A stretch of 64,000 nucleotides of DNA, from the sequence record MT150133.1. One strand, written 5' to 3'. Both the position numbers and the translations under genes were made by a program. The notes under the pieces are model-generated. The model did not search any database and was not told the origin of the DNA. It saw only the letters and a list, made by a program, of their open reading frames with translations. This DNA is from Enterobacteria phage vB_EcoM_IME540. Shown here piece by piece: positions 2,500 to 11,605 of the stretch. Position 1 is the first letter of the stretch, and every line of letters starts with the position of its first letter.

Positions 2500-3664
2500 C
2501 TAAATCCATCTCTTCCAAATCGTTTTCGATATCAGCGGCGCTTTGGGCATTACCACCTAATTTAACAGCAACGTTCTTAGAGACACGAGAGTTAATAAGG
2601 TCGTTCACTGCATCGTCAACTTCTTTAATAGAATTAATTGCACCGAGCTTATACTTATTCTCGATTGCTTCACGGAACGGGGCATGTTTAAACAGCGGTC
2701 CCCAGAACTCGACACAATCGGTAGCTTTAGCACGCCATGCTTTTTCTTCTTGAACCATTTCGCCTGTGGTTTCGTCAAGGAATGCACGATTATACCAGCC
2801 AGCTTTAGGTTTCACGACAAAGCCAATATCAGTAGCCATTTCAAGCAATCCACTGAATGGGTCGATACCACCTTCGAAGTTAACGGTGATAGGGAACGTT
2901 GATTTCTCTTTAACCGTACGAGATTTCTCAGCCTTCAGTGTGAAGTCATAACCAGTGAGCTCGGTACCATCTTTAACCTGACGTTTAGAGATAAAGAACA
3001 CGGTAGAAGCAGAGTACAGAATACCAGTACCACCACCCATAATCTCTTTAGGATACATTCCACCAATTTCCATAGCCGTGTGGTTGATTGCTACACAAGG
3101 GATATCTTTGATAGTCAGATAAGGTGTTACGATACGGAACAGAGATTTCAGTGACTTAGCACGGGTCATATCACCTACAACTTTCTCGTTCAAAGCATCT
3201 TCGGTTTCTTTCTTAGAAGCAGTGTTACCAATGGAGTCGATAAAGATAATAACCTTTTCGCCACGAGTAATTTCTTCTAACTGGTTGGTCATATCAACTT
3301 TAAGCTGTTCGACTGACTGGATTGGTGTATGAACCACACGTTCCAAATCAACACCCATCGAACGGAAATAAGATTCTGAAGCACCAAACTCAGAGTCATA
3401 GAACAAACAAATTGCGTCTGGATATTTCTTCATATATGCCGCAACCATGGTAAGTCCAAACAACGTTTTAAAGTGTTTAGATGGAGCAGCAAAGATTGTC
3501 AAACCTGATTGTAAGCCTGCATTCAACGCACCGCCTAATGCAATATTCAGCATAGGGATACGAGTAGGAACTTCGTCACGACCATTAAACAATTTAGATT
3601 TGGTCAGGTCGGCGGTCATTTTAGAAGTAGAAGCTTTAATCAAACGGGATTTTAAATCAGACAT
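2492..3664 (-). CDS. uvsX: UvsX recombinase (RecA-like)
   Basis: 390 aa; N-terminus MSDLKSRLIKASTSK and overall sequence match T4 UvsX. Confidence 0.95.
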   Translation of the reverse strand: MSDLKSRLIKASTSKMTADLTKSKLFNGRDEVPTRIPMLNIALGGALNAGLQSGLTIFAAPSKHFKTLFGLTMVAAYMKKYPDAICLFYDSEFGASESYFRSMGVDLERVVHTPIQSVEQLKVDMTNQLEEITRGEKVIIFIDSIGNTASKKETEDALNEKVVGDMTRAKSLKSLFRIVTPYLTIKDIPCVAINHTAMEIGGMYPKEIMGGGTGILYSASTVFFISKRQVKDGTELTGYDFTLKAEKSRTVKEKSTFPITVNFEGGIDPFSGLLEMATDIGFVVKPKAGWYNRAFLDETTGEMVQEEKAWRAKATDCVEFWGPLFKHAPFREAIENKYKLGAINSIKEVDDAVNDLINSRVSKNVAVKLGGNAQSAADIENDLEEMDLDD

Positions 3665-3741
3665 TATATTTTTCCATAGGCATCATTATATTTTACTCAC
3701 GTTTTAAGATAGGGTAATTATATCACTTCACATTTACAGCG

Positions 3742-4635
3742 TTAAAGGACCACGTCCTCATAACTTGGCATTTCGTGCTCAGAATGGATGTGGGCACCGA
3801 AATAAATGAATTCAGCCAGACCAGGATGGAATACTAAACTGGGATTCTCATGATAAATGATATGAGGTCTTGATTTCAGAATCTGATAATATTCAACCTT
3901 ACTCGGTTTGAATTTAATAATCTCTACATCAGGACGATGGTCTTCACGCTTAAATGAATCATTCGGATCGGTGATATAAAGGCGAGAACCTTCAGCCGCA
4001 GCTTGGTCTACAACTCTTTCGAATTGATAGCATTTATCTGAGATACGGAATGGATGGAAAATACCATCAATTTTAATAGGCGCTAGACCTTCAGAGTAAC
4101 GCTCAATTACTGCGGGATTAATTACCTTTTGGTCTACAAAAATCTTATCAGAGGACGCACCTCGTGACACCAGGACGTCTTTCTGACATTGATTCAAGAC
4201 TGTAGTATAAATCGAACGTTCAACTGAGGACACGTCGGTATCAATAAACTCGTCGATATAATAACGAGGAACTTCAGGGTCCATTGTAATGTTAAAGTTG
4301 AATTGTACAGTCTGAGTGCCATCATAACCTGTGATATCGGTTACCAATCCTGAGCAGTCATAGTATTCGATTAACGAATCAACAACGAACTCGTTTTCAG
4401 ACCAAAAATGTTTACGAGTTTCATAAGCATTTTCTTTATACCAAAGCGGTACAAAATTCAGTTCAGGAAATAATTCAATGCATTCTTTGATATCGCTCGA
4501 ATTTCTAGGATAAGCCAGATAATCACCTGGGCAAGCACGGTTTAAATGGAGTTGAAAATTACCGTCCTTAAGGACGGCATATTCACCTGTTTCGTAACTA
4601 CGCATACTGAAAATAGGAACGATAAACAAACTCAT
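3742..4635 (-). CDS. hypothetical protein (297 aa) at the T4 beta-gt position
   Basis: long ORF translationally coupled to gene 42 (ATGA overlap at 4632-4635); no resemblance to T4 beta-glucosyltransferase that I can recognise. Confidence 0.6.
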   Translation of the reverse strand: MSLFIVPIFSMRSYETGEYAVLKDGNFQLHLNRACPGDYLAYPRNSSDIKECIELFPELNFVPLWYKENAYETRKHFWSENEFVVDSLIEYYDCSGLVTDITGYDGTQTVQFNFNITMDPEVPRYYIDEFIDTDVSSVERSIYTTVLNQCQKDVLVSRGASSDKIFVDQKVINPAVIERYSEGLAPIKIDGIFHPFRISDKCYQFERVVDQAAAEGSRLYITDPNDSFKREDHRPDVEIIKFKPSKVEYYQILKSRPHIIYHENPSLVFHPGLAEFIYFGAHIHSEHEMPSYEDVVL

Positions 4636-5330
4636 TTCAGGAATCCTCGAACGTAGTCAAAATCACGTTCAAATACGTGTGCACTAACCATAGTATGGGA
4701 ATACGTACCCAGACCAACACCACACTGTTCAGCAATAAAGGCCATCAGTTTACCCTGCAGATAGAAATCCAGCTGCATAACAATAGCACAGTTCTGTGAA
4801 CGCATATGGGTATGTGCATAAAGACGTCCATCACGAATATAATATGTCACTGAATCAGTACATGGATATTCTAAGGATTCGTCAGAATCAAGGAGGGCTT
4901 GGTCTTGTTCTTGGAGAATTTGGAACACAACTCGTCTTGAGTTAGGCTTCTCTTTAAGCTCTTTAAGTAAGGCTGGGAGTTGGGCCACAATTCTAGGTCC
5001 ATAGAAAGTGTTGAAGTTTGCAGGCAATACGTCACTTTTCGGCTTATCAATGAACTTAGCAACATTAGGGTATTCCTTAAATGCTTCGGCGGCGTCAGTA
5101 CCACCAGAAATCATAAACTTCCAGAAAGATTCGGCATAATCATAGTTGATACGATTAATACGAGGGTCGGTGAATTTATAGGTGCTTGCATCCAGTACTT
5201 CTACCGAAGCAGAACCAATTTCATAACAACAGCCGATACGAGAATCAACTGCAAACTGTGGAGCTTCCAGGATTTCTTCGTTCATTTGCTTAAACGCGTT
5301 TTCAAAACTAACAGCGGTAATGTGTTTCAT
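4632..5330 (-). CDS. 42: dCMP hydroxymethylase (thymidylate-synthase fold)
   Basis: 232 aa; PCTDSVTYYIRD and RSQN motifs parallel T4 gp42 CTNTVQYLIRD / RSND; syntenic with T4 gene 42. Confidence 0.8.
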   Translation of the reverse strand: MKHITAVSFENAFKQMNEEILEAPQFAVDSRIGCCYEIGSASVEVLDASTYKFTDPRINRINYDYAESFWKFMISGGTDAAEAFKEYPNVAKFIDKPKSDVLPANFNTFYGPRIVAQLPALLKELKEKPNSRRVVFQILQEQDQALLDSDESLEYPCTDSVTYYIRDGRLYAHTHMRSQNCAIVMQLDFYLQGKLMAFIAEQCGVGLGTYSHTMVSAHVFERDFDYVRGFLK

Positions 5331-5863
5331 TTATTCACCTTATTTTCAATATATTCATTCAGACGTTTTAATTCTACCATATCGACGTTAAGCAAGTTAT
5401 TATGGCCGTCGTGATTTAAGATTTTAAACACGTTTTCAAAACATGTTTCATATTGCCGGATAGTTAGGTTGAACTCATCTTTGGTTAATTTAATAAGGTC
5501 ATCTTCAAAGTCTTTATCCAGTGGATTACGGGTTAAAATAACCTCAATAATATTGAATTCAGATTTAAACCCTTTCCAATCTTCCAGTTCTACATAAGGG
5601 TCCATTTCACCACGAAGGAATCCAGAGTAAACAATATTACTAGGATACCCACGGTCTAAGATGTAGACAAAATTAGGGTCTAAAAACTTATACAACGTCT
5701 CGACTAAAGCCTTGTCATTATCAGTCCCTAATGAAATGCATTTGCCATTAATCTTTTTAGGGAAATCAATAAGACGATATTTCTTATCAGATAAAAGTGA
5801 TTCAATTAAAGTAGACTTCCCGGAATTATCCGGGCCGTCGATAACAATGATTTTTGGTTTCAC
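5327..5863 (-). CDS. P-loop kinase, thymidylate-kinase-like
   Basis: Walker A IVIDGPDNSGKST and TMK-like DRGY motif (YILDRGYPSNIVYSG); 178 aa. Confidence 0.65.
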   Translation of the reverse strand: MKPKIIVIDGPDNSGKSTLIESLLSDKKYRLIDFPKKINGKCISLGTDNDKALVETLYKFLDPNFVYILDRGYPSNIVYSGFLRGEMDPYVELEDWKGFKSEFNIIEVILTRNPLDKDFEDDLIKLTKDEFNLTIRQYETCFENVFKILNHDGHNNLLNVDMVELKRLNEYIENKVNK

Positions 5864-6234
5864 GGATGATATGCCTTATAGGTTTCAAGAGTTCCTTCAC
5901 GAACCATTTCTTTAAAGTGGTCAGGACGGATTGCTCGGTCATCGATGATAAAAGTATAACTCGGCTTATGTGTAAGCAGATTGTGATATTTCAATCCAAT
6001 CTTTTCAAGGTTCTTAACTAATGCAGGAACTACTTCAACCAAGATTCGACCTGGGCCGCATGAAGTCATACCACGGGCAGTGAACAAGGTAATCTCGTAC
6101 CCTTCATCATAAAGCTTATTAATCACGGACACCATTTCGGTGTCCGGTTTAAAGTTTTCGTAATCACGGTCATCTTGCCAGTGAGTAATGGTATTATCGA
6201 TATCAAAACACAGATGCATTAAATTTTCTTCCAT
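5860..6234 (-). CDS. HAD-superfamily phosphatase (small, capless)
   Basis: all four HAD motifs: FDIDNT, LFTAR, HKPS, FIIDDR; alternative ATG at 6219 couples to upstream stop (TAATG). Confidence 0.65.
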   Translation of the reverse strand: MEENLMHLCFDIDNTITHWQDDRDYENFKPDTEMVSVINKLYDEGYEITLFTARGMTSCGPGRILVEVVPALVKNLEKIGLKYHNLLTHKPSYTFIIDDRAIRPDHFKEMVREGTLETYKAYHP

Positions 6235-7892
6235 TGTTTGTGGAGTTCGGTAGAACCTGTAGGTTTATATTTTACACCAGTTTCCTGGTCAAGCAAAACC
6301 CACTTATCAGGACAACGAGTGATAATTTGAGCCGTGATAGGGTCGCGAACTTCATCAACGAATTCACCTGTGATAAGCTTACGCTTACGAGGATGCCGCT
6401 TCAGCAGCACACTCAGTTGATATAGCCCATTGTAATAAGCGCCCAGAGCTTTCAGAGGGTTATTTTTAAAGTAACCTGCCAATGCCATCCAGATAACAGC
6501 AATCCAGAGCTTGTGCTTAAATGTACACATCGGAATATCATCTAAAGGCATAACCTTTTCAATATCAACGAATACACGAGTTCCGTTACGAGTTAAGCCA
6601 CCCCATAGAGGGTCAGAGTTAAATTTGTCATAACCATCGATAGAATAAAGCACCTTAGCTTCATCATAAATCGCAGGGCCTTTAGAACTATTACCAAAAT
6701 AACCACGTGGGTCGATGATTTTAATATTACCTTCGTCCGACAACATAATATTACTGTAGTGCGGGTCGCCATGAATAAGTTGGTACGGTTCTTTATGTTC
6801 AGACAGAATTTCTAAGGCGTGACGAAGAAGTTTTTCTGGGTCGCCTACCTTGAAGTCGTTAACATGGGTAATACCCTGTGGAGCAAAGCCTTCAATCAAT
6901 CCGGCAATAGAAGCATTACGAATAAGGACCTTGTCCAATACTTCTTTCTTAACATCAGAATACCATTGCTCATCGGATGGATTATCGATAGTTCCACCGA
7001 ATGAACGTAATGCACTAATGACCTTATAAACCATGAGGACTTTAGTTTCTTTAGACATAAACCGATAGGCGTCTGCCATGGTGCGACCAAAGATACGTTC
7101 CATTTTAATGAATTCACCTGGAGCAAAGTCTACAATGCTAGGAACGAATTCAGAATCAATAGAATTGTACCAATTGATTTCTTTAGATTGGATTTCTTTA
7201 CCTAATTCGTTTGTAGGTACTTTAATAGCTAGATTCTCAGTGAACTCTAATTTATTAAATTCACGGTTAATTTCAGAATCTTCATGGGCCTTAGCCAGTT
7301 TCAGTTTGTCACCAACATCAACTACAAAGTCTAACTTACGTTCAGTCAAATGGACCATTGAATCCAGGTTGTCAGCAAGGTCTTCACCATAATTAGAACG
7401 GTCGAAACCTGTCCAATTAGCCACCTGATACAAGCCAACTACGCCACCACCGGTACCAATTTCACGCAAGTACGGTTCTTCAAATGTAAAACGACAGTCA
7501 GTCCCATAGGTATAACAGTAGTCGTTATCCCACTCAACTTTATGACCTTCAGGAATAATATCACACCAGTTAAACAAGACATTGTGCCCAATGATATCTT
7601 CGGCAATGCAATCGATAGCATGAGCCGAACCATTGGCAACATCAACGTTACGAATAGTGAATTTAGGCTTATCACTATTAATCATGTTAATGGATTTAAT
7701 ATAGCCTTTAACGAGGTCGTTAAATTTGCTGTGAATAACCAGAATAATTTCATCTGATTGATTACTATACAAATCATACAAATGTTTTAATACAGTATGT
7801 TGTTTGTAGTTAACCAGTACCTTCGGGATTTCGTTGGTAATTGGATACAACCGTGAGCCAAGACCCGCGCCTAAAATAACAACCTTTTTCAT
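6219..7892 (-). CDS. bifunctional nucleotidyltransferase (N-terminal) / APH-ChoK-like kinase (C-terminal)
   Basis: N-terminus VVILGAGLGSRL (sugar-1-P/LicC-type NTase glycine loop); C-terminus LIHGDPHYSNIM...IIDPRGY (Brenner HGDxxxxN kinase motif); start trimmed to MKKVVILG with GAGGAA SD. Confidence 0.7.
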   Translation of the reverse strand: MKKVVILGAGLGSRLYPITNEIPKVLVNYKQHTVLKHLYDLYSNQSDEIILVIHSKFNDLVKGYIKSINMINSDKPKFTIRNVDVANGSAHAIDCIAEDIIGHNVLFNWCDIIPEGHKVEWDNDYCYTYGTDCRFTFEEPYLREIGTGGGVVGLYQVANWTGFDRSNYGEDLADNLDSMVHLTERKLDFVVDVGDKLKLAKAHEDSEINREFNKLEFTENLAIKVPTNELGKEIQSKEINWYNSIDSEFVPSIVDFAPGEFIKMERIFGRTMADAYRFMSKETKVLMVYKVISALRSFGGTIDNPSDEQWYSDVKKEVLDKVLIRNASIAGLIEGFAPQGITHVNDFKVGDPEKLLRHALEILSEHKEPYQLIHGDPHYSNIMLSDEGNIKIIDPRGYFGNSSKGPAIYDEAKVLYSIDGYDKFNSDPLWGGLTRNGTRVFVDIEKVMPLDDIPMCTFKHKLWIAVIWMALAGYFKNNPLKALGAYYNGLYQLSVLLKRHPRKRKLITGEFVDEVRDPITAQIITRCPDKWVLLDQETGVKYKPTGSTELHKQWKKI

Positions 7893-7952
7893 TATCTGTT
7901 CCTCAAGTGAATGTAGGTACATTATACACTATTTTTAATAAATTGGTATTGC

Positions 7953-8453
7953 TTAAATCTTATCTTTACCGATTTCAATACACTGTTCTATTGCCGCCGG
8001 TGCTTTGGTCTTGAGCTTATCGATTTGTTTCTTATAATCACGAGCTTTACCGAAGCTCTCGGTTTCGAGCATTTCGTAATAACGAGCCTCGTGGATGGAA
8101 ATCTGTAGATTGATATGGTTTACGCACATCGCATACAGTTTCTGCTTTTTGTACAAATCATCTTGACGCTTCATTTCTGCCTGGTGTTTGGCTAGTACCG
8201 CTTCACGCTTGGACTCTTGTTCACGTTGGAATTCGATTTCTTGTTGAGCATATTTTGCACAGTTATTACCGCATTGATTATTAGCTCGGGTGTACACAAG
8301 TCCAGAACCTGCACGGAATTTCATTTCGCCATCGAATTGTTTCTGTTCAGCTGCGATACGAGCTTTACCAACTTCATCGGCCGAAACTGTATCACCATAT
8401 TGGACCGCGCAACCTGATAGGAGCATACTCATTGCGATAATTAACTTTTTCAT
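7953..8453 (-). CDS. lipoprotein (signal peptide + lipobox LLSGC)
   Basis: MKKLIIAMSMLLSGC lipobox; charged coiled-coil-like mature part; adjacent to imm. Confidence 0.65.
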   Translation of the reverse strand: MKKLIIAMSMLLSGCAVQYGDTVSADEVGKARIAAEQKQFDGEMKFRAGSGLVYTRANNQCGNNCAKYAQQEIEFQREQESKREAVLAKHQAEMKRQDDLYKKQKLYAMCVNHINLQISIHEARYYEMLETESFGKARDYKKQIDKLKTKAPAAIEQCIEIGKDKI

Positions 8454-8460
8454 AATATCC

Positions 8461-8598
8461 TCAATTAAAACAGTTATACTTAATTTGTGCTATAAGAATA
8501 ATCCATCCAATGATGAGTGTCGGAATCATTGGGGGAATTGCCACTGCCCAATAAATGGTAAAGGCAGTCATTATAAGAAATAAAATAATTATTTTCAT
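8461..8598 (-). CDS. small hydrophobic membrane protein (45 aa, below ORF-track cutoff)
   Basis: ATGA overlap with imm stop at 8595-8598; MKIIILFLIMTAFTIYWAVAIPPMIPTLIIGWIILIAQ is almost entirely hydrophobic. Confidence 0.4.
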   Translation of the reverse strand: MKIIILFLIMTAFTIYWAVAIPPMIPTLIIGWIILIAQIKYNCFN

Positions 8599-8831
8599 TG
8601 CTTAACAATAATGATTTGTGCGTTTGATTTACGTTCAGCGACGATAGCCCAGATTAAAGCCACTACCCAACCAATCATCGTCCAGCCTAACAGGAGATTA
8701 AGGAAGAAAATTCCGACATTACTACGAGTGCCTCGCAGAAGAGCCAGAATCCATGGTAAAAAGTAACCGATGAACATAATAACCAGAGAACCGAATCCTA
8801 AAACACCAGCACTAACGATTAAAGCTTCCAT
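8595..8831 (-). CDS. imm: superinfection immunity protein Imm-like (two TM helices)
   Basis: 78 aa membrane protein with GWVVALIWA-type motif; syntenic with T4 imm beside gene 43. Confidence 0.6.
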   Translation of the reverse strand: MEALIVSAGVLGFGSLVIMFIGYFLPWILALLRGTRSNVGIFFLNLLLGWTMIGWVVALIWAIVAERKSNAQIIIVKQ

Positions 8832-8849
8832 TGTAATTTCCTCATGTAG

Positions 8850-8892
8850 TTGATAGGAAGGATACTACCACGTTCCTTGTGGTATGTAAACA
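8850..8892 (-). promoter_or_regulatory. early promoter-like element upstream of imm (degenerate copy)
   Basis: rc GTTTAC-N17-TAGTAT with TG two bases upstream of -10. Confidence 0.4.
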
Positions 8893-8893
8893 C

Positions 8894-11605
8894 TTAAAAG
8901 TCGAACATATCAAATAATGTTGCTTTTTTCTCGTAGTCGATTTTAGCAGACTCAGTAAAACCGGTCAGAGGTTTGATAAAGGTCTTTTGGAACAGTACGT
9001 TGTAGTCCATCCAACGGAGGACTTGGTCACGAATCTGAACCGGAAGTTCAATACCTGACGGCCATGCCATACAAGCTTCACCAAACGGGTTGCCTTCTTT
9101 AAGTGGCAGTACATATACCTTTTCACCATCAACGATACGAGGCATAGTCAAATCACCTGCAGAAGCACGCATGTAAGCTAAGCAACCTTTGATGTGGTAT
9201 GGACATTTAGAACCCGGGAATCCACCTTCATTATATTTCTCGATGTTGTTAGCACTGGATACTGCTGCAATGCTTACATAATCGAGTTCGTTAAATTCCT
9301 TATTAAACTGTTTGAAATATTCTTGCAAAGATGCCTCGCCTTCCTGAAGCATACGACGGATACATTCCTTCAGAGCTTTCTGAACTGCTTTAGGTGTACT
9401 TGATTTCTGAGTTTCGAGACCCATGATTTTCAAGTGTGGTTCAGCATAACGAGTACCTTCCATGTCCCAAACGTTAAGTGCATAACGTTTCTTGCCTGTC
9501 CAGAATCCACCAAGGCCTTTAGAACCAAGTGGAGGACCTGCGATAGCTTCTCGGTCCATGAACATCAAGTGTTGTTTGTTGTTCATGTATTCGCACATCT
9601 CACGGAAGCCTGCATCAATAGCTGGTTCCATACGTTCACGTGCAAATTTATCTAAGAAGTCTACCCAGTGGTTAGTATCACGGAATTTATCTTCGCCTAC
9701 TTTATTGATGATTGCATCTGCCTTAACATAAATGGAGTCAGTATCACCGTAGAGCACGAACTTCTGGTTTTCAGTCTTACACACGCTATTCAGATATTCG
9801 TTAACCTTACGTTCAATCCATTGGAGGGCCATTTGACCAAACAATGTGATTGCAGTTGCGTTCCTGAGGTCATAGTAACGGAACCATACGTTACCAAGTG
9901 CACCATAAAGGGAGTTGATAAGCAACTTACGGTTAATCTGAGCAGTGTTACCTGCAACTTCAGTGAGCTCGGCTTTCTTCAACATTTCTCTTAAAGAAGG
10001 CGCTGACAGTGCTTTAATCTGGGCTTTTATTTCGTCAGAGAAGTCAAAACGATAATCGATATCCAGTGGACTATCAACTGAGAGATTAGGATTTTCCAAT
10101 GCTTCTTTAATTAACTCACCATTACGTTGAGCTGCAAGCATGTAACCTTTATGTTCTTTACGCTGCAAGAATACCTTGGTGATTTCTGTCGGAATCACAC
10201 CTTCACGGTCTTTATAGTACATCATGCCGTTAGGAGAGCAACTGTAGGTGTCGCTAGGACGCTGAGCAGTTCCGGCAATATATTCATGTATCGGTGCGTT
10301 AGCGAATGTCCCTGCGATGGTCTCTGGGCTTATATTCACTTGTCGAATGATACTCGGATACAGAGATGTAAGGTCGAAACTCATTACATATTTGTAAGCG
10401 TTAGGAATCGGTTCCTTAACGAAAGCACCAGGATAAGGTTGGACCACGTGCGAACGAGCTTGTGGAATTACCTTGCCTTGTTCTTTAAGGCTATTAAAGA
10501 TAATAGCGTCCCAAGTCTTAATTGGGCTGAACACCGACTGAATCTGCATCTTGGCATAATAACCCATGTCCAAACTCAGAAGAATGAACTGACGCTTCAT
10601 ATCAATCTGCACTACACGATATACGTCGATAATGTTATAGGAAATATATCGTTGGTGGTTCGTCTCACGTAACTTGGAGATTGGGCCATCATATTTCAAC
10701 TTACCTACTTTCAATTCATATTCAGAAACATAATCCAGAGAATAAGAAGGCTGGTTGGTGAAGCTGAATTTTTTATAGAGGTCGATATAATCCAGAACAG
10801 AGATACCGAACAATGTAATGATTTCACGAGCACCGTACATGTTCTCAATAACTTTAACACGAGTTTTACGATGTGGGCTTAATCGCTTAGCAGTGTTCTC
10901 ACCGAACAGATTTTTCAGACGGTTATAAACGTACGGTACGTCAAACGACTCAACGTTCCATCCAGTCAAAATCACAGGAGTTTTCTGTTGCCAGAAATTC
11001 AAGTACTCAAGCATCATTTCTTCTTCAGAATTAAACGGAAGATAAACGATTTTGTCAATGATTTCCTGTGGAACTTCGTCACCACCTTCGTCTTGGAGTT
11101 TCTCAGCGATTTTAATCGACCACTCTTCAACAGTACCATAAGGCGAAACTAAAAGGTCGAATACATAGAATTTATCGTCAATCGAGTCGTAGTGGGTAAT
11201 GGCATCGATAGGATGTTTAGCCTGAGCTGGTTCAGGGAATCCATCAGGAGATGTTACCTCGATGTCGAAGTTAGCAATACGAATCTTAGAAGAATCATAT
11301 TTGATTTCTTTACGATAGGTATCAGACAAATAGGCTAATTTATAGTCGTCCATACCCAGGGCTTCGAGACCCATATCATCCATACGTTTCATCCATTGGG
11401 ATGCATCACGCATAGAATCGAATTCTTTCTTAACACAACCCTTACCATAGATATCAATGTATTTTACGGCTTGCTCTGGATTAGCATGCATAAACATTGT
11501 AGGCTTGTATGGAACTTCACGACTACGTTCGTTACCATTTTTATCGATGTAACGTTCGAGAATATTATCACCGATTTGTTCGACTGTCAAATAGAATTCT
11601 TGCAT
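8894..11605 (-). CDS. 43: DNA polymerase gp43 (family B)
   Basis: collinear with T4 gp43; ORF-track TTG start trimmed to MQEFYLTVEQIGDN (T4 starts MKEFYISIE) with AAGGA SD. Confidence 0.95.
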   Translation of the reverse strand: MQEFYLTVEQIGDNILERYIDKNGNERSREVPYKPTMFMHANPEQAVKYIDIYGKGCVKKEFDSMRDASQWMKRMDDMGLEALGMDDYKLAYLSDTYRKEIKYDSSKIRIANFDIEVTSPDGFPEPAQAKHPIDAITHYDSIDDKFYVFDLLVSPYGTVEEWSIKIAEKLQDEGGDEVPQEIIDKIVYLPFNSEEEMMLEYLNFWQQKTPVILTGWNVESFDVPYVYNRLKNLFGENTAKRLSPHRKTRVKVIENMYGAREIITLFGISVLDYIDLYKKFSFTNQPSYSLDYVSEYELKVGKLKYDGPISKLRETNHQRYISYNIIDVYRVVQIDMKRQFILLSLDMGYYAKMQIQSVFSPIKTWDAIIFNSLKEQGKVIPQARSHVVQPYPGAFVKEPIPNAYKYVMSFDLTSLYPSIIRQVNISPETIAGTFANAPIHEYIAGTAQRPSDTYSCSPNGMMYYKDREGVIPTEITKVFLQRKEHKGYMLAAQRNGELIKEALENPNLSVDSPLDIDYRFDFSDEIKAQIKALSAPSLREMLKKAELTEVAGNTAQINRKLLINSLYGALGNVWFRYYDLRNATAITLFGQMALQWIERKVNEYLNSVCKTENQKFVLYGDTDSIYVKADAIINKVGEDKFRDTNHWVDFLDKFARERMEPAIDAGFREMCEYMNNKQHLMFMDREAIAGPPLGSKGLGGFWTGKKRYALNVWDMEGTRYAEPHLKIMGLETQKSSTPKAVQKALKECIRRMLQEGEASLQEYFKQFNKEFNELDYVSIAAVSSANNIEKYNEGGFPGSKCPYHIKGCLAYMRASAGDLTMPRIVDGEKVYVLPLKEGNPFGEACMAWPSGIELPVQIRDQVLRWMDYNVLFQKTFIKPLTGFTESAKIDYEKKATLFDMFDF

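Follow-up and report, generated by a model that had tools for sequence, protein, structure and literature searches.

A minimal HAD phosphatase of Enterobacteria phage vB_EcoM_IME540 as the probable Dhakavirus ortholog of AfhF in a proposed arabinose pathway

What does a stand-alone HAD phosphatase of about 120 aa do in a phage genome, and at which step does it act when its gene adjoins a sugar kinase/nucleotidyltransferase fusion? The window analyzed here, i.e. the whole 64,000-nucleotide stretch of Enterobacteria phage vB_EcoM_IME540 (MT150133.1), is a T4-like replication region, with the gp41 helicase, UvsX, the gp43 DNA polymerase, gp45 and gp44/62 in its ORF list. In a megablast search, positions 3700-8000 matched Escherichia phage QL01 along their whole length (99.5% identity) and phage WG01 at 99.3% identity, both phages belonging to the genus Dhakavirus, or JS98 group. 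The genes of interest, and the catalytic motifs of the HAD protein, are as follows:

6219..7922, minus strand: AfhE-like fusion protein, with a sugar-1-phosphate nucleotidyltransferase at the N-terminus and an APH-type kinase at the C-terminus (RB69 gp52:53 ortholog)
5860..6234, minus strand: HAD phosphatase, minimal C0-type (probable ortholog of HY126 AfhF and RB69 gp51), longest ORF, 124 aa
6196..6204, minus strand: HAD motif I, D11-I-D13 (the Asp nucleophile and the Asp that serves as general acid/base), invariant in 41 homologs, codons read from the sequence
6079..6081, minus strand: HAD motif II, T52, ahead of the invariant R54 and G55 (41-homolog alignment)
5965..5967, minus strand: HAD motif III, K90 (41-homolog alignment)
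5938..5943, minus strand: HAD motif IV, D98-D99 (Mg2+ ligands; 41-homolog alignment, codons checked)
5327..5863, minus strand: P-loop nucleotide (dTMP-kinase-like) kinase, RB69 gp45 homolog (phrog_761, E 2e-39)
4632..5330, minus strand: 5-hydroxy-dCMP synthase homolog with a thymidylate-synthase fold (78% identity to RB69 gp48)
3742..4635, minus strand: homolog of RB69 gp46:47, the first DNA arabinosyltransferase (63-69% identity over both RB69 halves; phrog_3891)

The original prediction of a complete set of four HAD motifs in about 120 aa was borne out. Motif I reads D11-I-D13-N-T15, T52 of motif II lies within LFTARG, and motifs III and IV are provided by K90 and D98-D99. We aligned the protein with 41 homologs (32-92% identity to the query) from a search of 5.8 billion proteins; D11, D13, T52, R54, G55, K90, D98 and D99 were invariant in all 41, as were Y25, N39, L41 and G45. 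An AlphaFold2 model built on this alignment (pLDDT 88, pTM 0.83) consists of a small, bare Rossmann-like core without an inserted cap, with a short flap after motif I only. The crystal chains that match it are themselves just 123-134 residues long, and the predicted lack of a cap domain therefore stands. The ATG at 6219 (M6) shares TAATG with the stop of the upstream gene; several homologs begin with a Met at this place (MNLCFD...), and the QL01 gene starts here in RefSeq. The coding sequence is therefore probably 5860-6219, or 119 aa, and the shorter start would leave the domain unaffected.

A PDB sequence search gave 9iqw as the best match (E 2e-53), an entry entitled 'phage HY126 encoded D-arabinose 1,5-diphosphate phosphatase AfhF', followed by 1xpj (E 6e-12), a Vibrio cholerae protein of unknown function. 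Foldseek also placed 9iqw at the top (E 1.5e-16, TM 0.86, 62% identity). RB69 gp51, which is identical to 9iqw across the aligned part, matched 5863-6228 at 62% identity in tblastn; motif I is DIDNT in the IME540 protein vs. DVDDC in HY126 and RB69. The phrog_1238 profile matched with an E value of 6e-41, generic HAD models from Pfam and NCBIfam did so weakly, and a homolog was found by tblastn in 389 phage records. Matches such as those to phrog_1238, 9iqw and TIGR01689 lie well outside what chance would give. Similarity to the solved enzyme, motifs I-IV, a cap-less core of ~120-130 aa and the neighboring genes are all shared with AfhF. The HAD gene thus very probably encodes the ortholog of AfhF in Dhakavirus, a cap-less phosphatase that depends on Mg2+, in the proposed arabinose pathway. 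To this assignment our own analysis contributes the homology and fold of the protein, the conservation of its motifs, the synteny and the overlaps between genes, while the substrate, the order of steps and the Mg2+ dependence are those given for orthologs in the literature. The AfhF family itself is already known, having been characterized structurally and biochemically in 2025-2026, and Dhakaviruses are already listed with the cluster.

The protein had been likened to KdsC/GmhB-type sugar-phosphate phosphatases. The activity class and the analogy with GmhB are upheld, but not membership of either family by sequence: no GmhB equivalog matched at E<=1, and for KdsC there was no NCBIfam match and the Foldseek scores to 1k1e/2r8e were E 0.025-0.09 and TM 0.33-0.43. 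A HAD-IIIA assignment failed as well (TIGR01662, 22.7 bits where the cut-off is 44.6, with only residues 8-54 aligned). The TIGR01689 model, 'EcbF-BcbF capsule biosynthesis phosphatase', matched end to end (E 2e-14), with a score of 53.4 bits vs. a curated cut-off of 162 bits, making this a related family rather than an equivalog. GmhB (D-glycero-D-manno-heptose 1,7-bisphosphate 7-phosphatase, HAD-IIIA) has a HAD core without a large cap, as in AfhF, and like AfhF acts between the anomeric kinase and nucleotidyltransferase steps, where it strips a sugar 1,n-bisphosphate of its distal phosphate. The logic of ADP-heptose synthesis (GmhA, HldE kinase, GmhB, HldE adenylyltransferase) thus parallels that of the proposed arabinose pathway. 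KdsC, the Kdo 8-phosphate phosphatase (C0 HAD), is also a cap-less sugar-phosphate phosphatase, and acts on a monophosphate.

The gene bears names in databases that do not fit its fold. It is labeled 'phosphoheptose isomerase' in PHROGs (phrog_1238) and in many RefSeq phage genomes, and 'capsule biosynthesis protein' or 'putative polynucleotide kinase' in other phage records. The first label, i.e. GmhA, is a mis-annotation: the protein had no SIS match in Pfam or NCBIfam and its fold is that of a HAD phosphatase. The annotation of a gene misnamed in dozens of RefSeq/GenBank phage records is hereby fixed.

The gene was also expected to lie inside a kinase/nucleotidyltransferase module, and it does indeed adjoin the AfhE-like fusion through an overlapping stop and start. 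The latter ORF matched the Pfam families NTP_transferase (E 2.5e-8) and APH (E 9e-6) as well as phrog_4098 (E 5e-269), and RB69p052/053 (gp52:53) aligned with 6222-7892 at 41-44% identity in tblastn. The longest version of this ORF, starting at 7922, opens within a TATAAT element. Its true start is probably the ATG at 7892 (M11), which is preceded by a GAGGA Shine-Dalgarno sequence and is also the RefSeq start, giving a protein of 557 aa. On the other side, the GTG start of the nucleotide kinase overlaps the HAD stop (GTGA); RB69p045 (gp45) matched this gene at 37% identity over 5372-5857. The next ORF, matched by RB69 gp48 over 4638-5330, is far closer to PDB entries 9iqu/9iqc (E 2e-124) than to the T4 dCMP hydroxymethylase gp42 (E 4e-6), and the tblastn match to RB69 gp46:47 spans 3745-4635. 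Stops and starts overlap at every junction of the five-gene block (TAATG, GTGA, ATGA and ATGA), an arrangement that points to a single translationally coupled unit. A scan of 3600-9000 for sigma-70 promoters and terminators yielded no more sites than shuffled sequence; a TATAAT is visible by eye just upstream of the AfhE-like start. Between the AfhE-like gene and the imm/DNA polymerase genes lies a 166-aa ORF (7953-8453, minus strand) with a lipoprotein-type N-terminus, MKKLIIAMSMLLSGC..., which belongs to phrog_1754 (function unknown) and has no RB69 counterpart in the interval.

Much of this block can be read against published work on phages whose DNA carries arabinosylated 5-hydroxycytosine, as in RB69 and DLP3 (PMC13326640, NAR 2026), a base that replaces the arabinosyl-hmC originally proposed for these DNAs (PMC6024577). 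RB69 gp48 has been confirmed experimentally as a 5-hydroxy-dCMP synthase, gp46:47 has been proposed as the first arabinosyltransferase, and Dhakaviruses are among the groups with a syntenic cluster that are placed with the arabinosylating phages (PMC13326640). According to the account of He et al. 2026 given in the same paper, HY126 AfhE is an arabinose-5-phosphate kinase as well as a UDP-arabinose pyrophosphorylase, and AfhF a Mg2+-dependent phosphatase converting Araf-1,5-P2 to Araf-1-P. The kinase would thus act on arabinose 5-phosphate, the HAD enzyme would then remove the 5-phosphate and the nucleotidyltransferase would come last, i.e. the phosphatase would work between the two activities of AfhE.

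We propose the same route for IME540. The host enzymes KdsD and GutQ would supply D-arabinose 5-phosphate, which the C-terminal kinase domain of the AfhE-like protein would phosphorylate on C1 to give arabinofuranose 1,5-bisphosphate. The HAD phosphatase would then take off the 5-phosphate: D11 would be the nucleophile and D13 the acid/base, T52 and K90 would hold the phosphate, and D98/D99 would bind Mg2+. The N-terminal nucleotidyltransferase domain would convert arabinofuranose 1-phosphate and UTP to UDP-arabinofuranose, and the 297-aa glycosyltransferase would move the arabinose onto 5-hydroxycytosine in phage DNA. The adjacent thymidylate-synthase-like enzyme is predicted to make 5-hydroxy-dCMP and the adjacent kinase to phosphorylate it. 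Homologs of RB69 gp55 (arabinose-5-phosphate isomerase), gp49, gp50 and gp3 (second arabinosyltransferase) were found neither in the window nor in the rest of QL01. Since the isomerase is missing from the phage, the supply of arabinose 5-phosphate by the host and the identity of the sugar are matters that we infer.

On the order of steps the original prediction fared badly. It suggested that the HAD enzyme might act ahead of the kinase on a host phosphosugar, in which case a pentose 5-phosphate such as arabinose 5-phosphate would be converted to the free sugar and the kinase domain would phosphorylate the latter on C1. These are the roles given in Table 1 of PMC13326640, where DLP3 gp81/RB69 gp51 'dephosphorylates Araf5P to Ara' (an older role) and the kinase domain 'phosphorylates Ara to Araf1P', and the two orders look alike at the level of the genes themselves. 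However, the PDB title of the ortholog names a D-arabinose 1,5-diphosphate phosphatase, and He et al., as reported in the text of PMC13326640, have the kinase acting on Araf5P and AfhF on Araf1,5P2. In this published work on the ortholog the phosphatase follows the kinase and precedes the nucleotidyltransferase, leaving the earlier order unsupported. Distant relatives of the HAD gene, described below, pair with HldE-type kinase/nucleotidyltransferase genes, i.e. with a bisphosphate route, and we consider action on the monophosphate unlikely. Less likely again would be a pathway with the same chemistry and another pentose, for example ribose 5-phosphate via ribose 1,5-bisphosphate, leading to a non-arabinose pentosyl-5-hydroxycytosine. 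The missing isomerase, gp50 and gp3 homologs would fit such a pathway, as would the fact that an arabinose-5-phosphate isomerase occurs in 276 records of the phage collection vs. 389 for the HAD gene, and that no member of the set has diverged more than AfhE (41-44% identity to RB69). Yet close similarity to the RB69 counterparts is seen for the HAD protein (62%), for the glycosyltransferase (63-69%) and for the hydroxylase (78%), and the grouping of Dhakaviruses with arabinosylating phages in PMC13326640 also argues for arabinose. In E. coli, KdsD and GutQ form arabinose 5-phosphate constitutively on the way to Kdo, so that an isomerase encoded by the phage is dispensable.

We give hardly any credence to a third possibility, that the protein is a nucleic-acid or nucleotide phosphatase (a polynucleotide 3'-phosphatase or 5'(3')-deoxyribonucleotidase) with no part in sugar activation. 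A best structural match to a polynucleotide 3'-phosphatase was to speak against a sugar phosphatase; the best matches being 9iqw, a sugar-bisphosphate phosphatase, and 1xpj, with no polynucleotide phosphatase in their place, the sugar reading therefore passes this check on structure. The score against the polynucleotide kinase 3'-phosphatase family (PF08645) was 12.7 bits vs. a Pfam gathering threshold of 22, and those for deoxyribonucleotidases were likewise below threshold. The HAD protein stands alone beside a sugar kinase/nucleotidyltransferase, with no fusion to a polynucleotide kinase domain, and QL01 carries a separate PseT polynucleotide kinase/phosphatase gene.

Returning to a phosphatase that acts on the 1,5-bisphosphate, independent support for its place between kinase and nucleotidyltransferase comes from distant homologs (~100 aa long, 31-43% identity) in cyanophage P-SSM2 and in marine and freshwater viral contigs, of which three metagenomic contigs were examined. 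These are flanked by a PfkB sugar kinase on one side and a cytidylyltransferase-like nucleotidyltransferase on the other, the domain pair of HldE, at the following loci:

L007, 3874-5667 (P-SSM2)
L008, 705-5737
L011, 3913-5664

In gene content these loci look like a split HldE/GmhB-style cassette for some activated sugar. Epimerases, cupins and carbamoyltransferases are also found among the neighbors. The nearest bacterial family is TIGR01689, whose founding member, BcbF of Pasteurella multocida, is predicted to take part in attaching the type B capsule's fructose side chain; attempts to obtain a bcbF mutant failed (PMC13552107). A link between BcbF and arabinose, which would have required arabinose in this capsule, was dropped in view of its composition, a backbone of GlcNAc-ManNAcA carrying fructose and glycine as side chains (PMC13552107). 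The role predicted for BcbF hints that minimal HAD enzymes of this family may help to activate a variety of sugars.

The Dhakavirus set thus comprises the hydroxylase, the nucleotide kinase, a single glycosyltransferase, AfhE and AfhF, and differs from that of RB69 in its layout as well. In RB69, gp50, gp49 and the hydroxylase come downstream of the HAD gene, and gp45 adjoins uvsX, whereas in IME540 the nucleotide kinase (37% identical to gp45 and starting with GTG) directly follows the HAD gene and separates it from the hydroxylase. We infer from this reduced set that Dhakaviruses would obtain their arabinose 5-phosphate from KdsD/GutQ of the host and attach just one arabinose. A bolder version, in which AfhE and AfhF have shifted to another host pentose phosphate and the DNA carries a pentosyl-5-hydroxycytosine other than the arabinosyl one, strikes us as improbable; its lesser form would be a strictly mono-arabinosylated base dependent wholly on KdsD/GutQ. 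No chemical analysis of Dhakavirus DNA was found in the literature searched.

Globally, our data place IME540 among the phages predicted to replace cytosine with arabinosyl-5-hydroxycytosine. Since this modification alters how sensitive a phage is to restriction, CRISPR and type IV systems, it matters when therapeutic phages are chosen. The prediction that follows for the genus is that Dhakaviruses would modify their DNA with a smaller gene set, relying on the arabinose 5-phosphate of their host.
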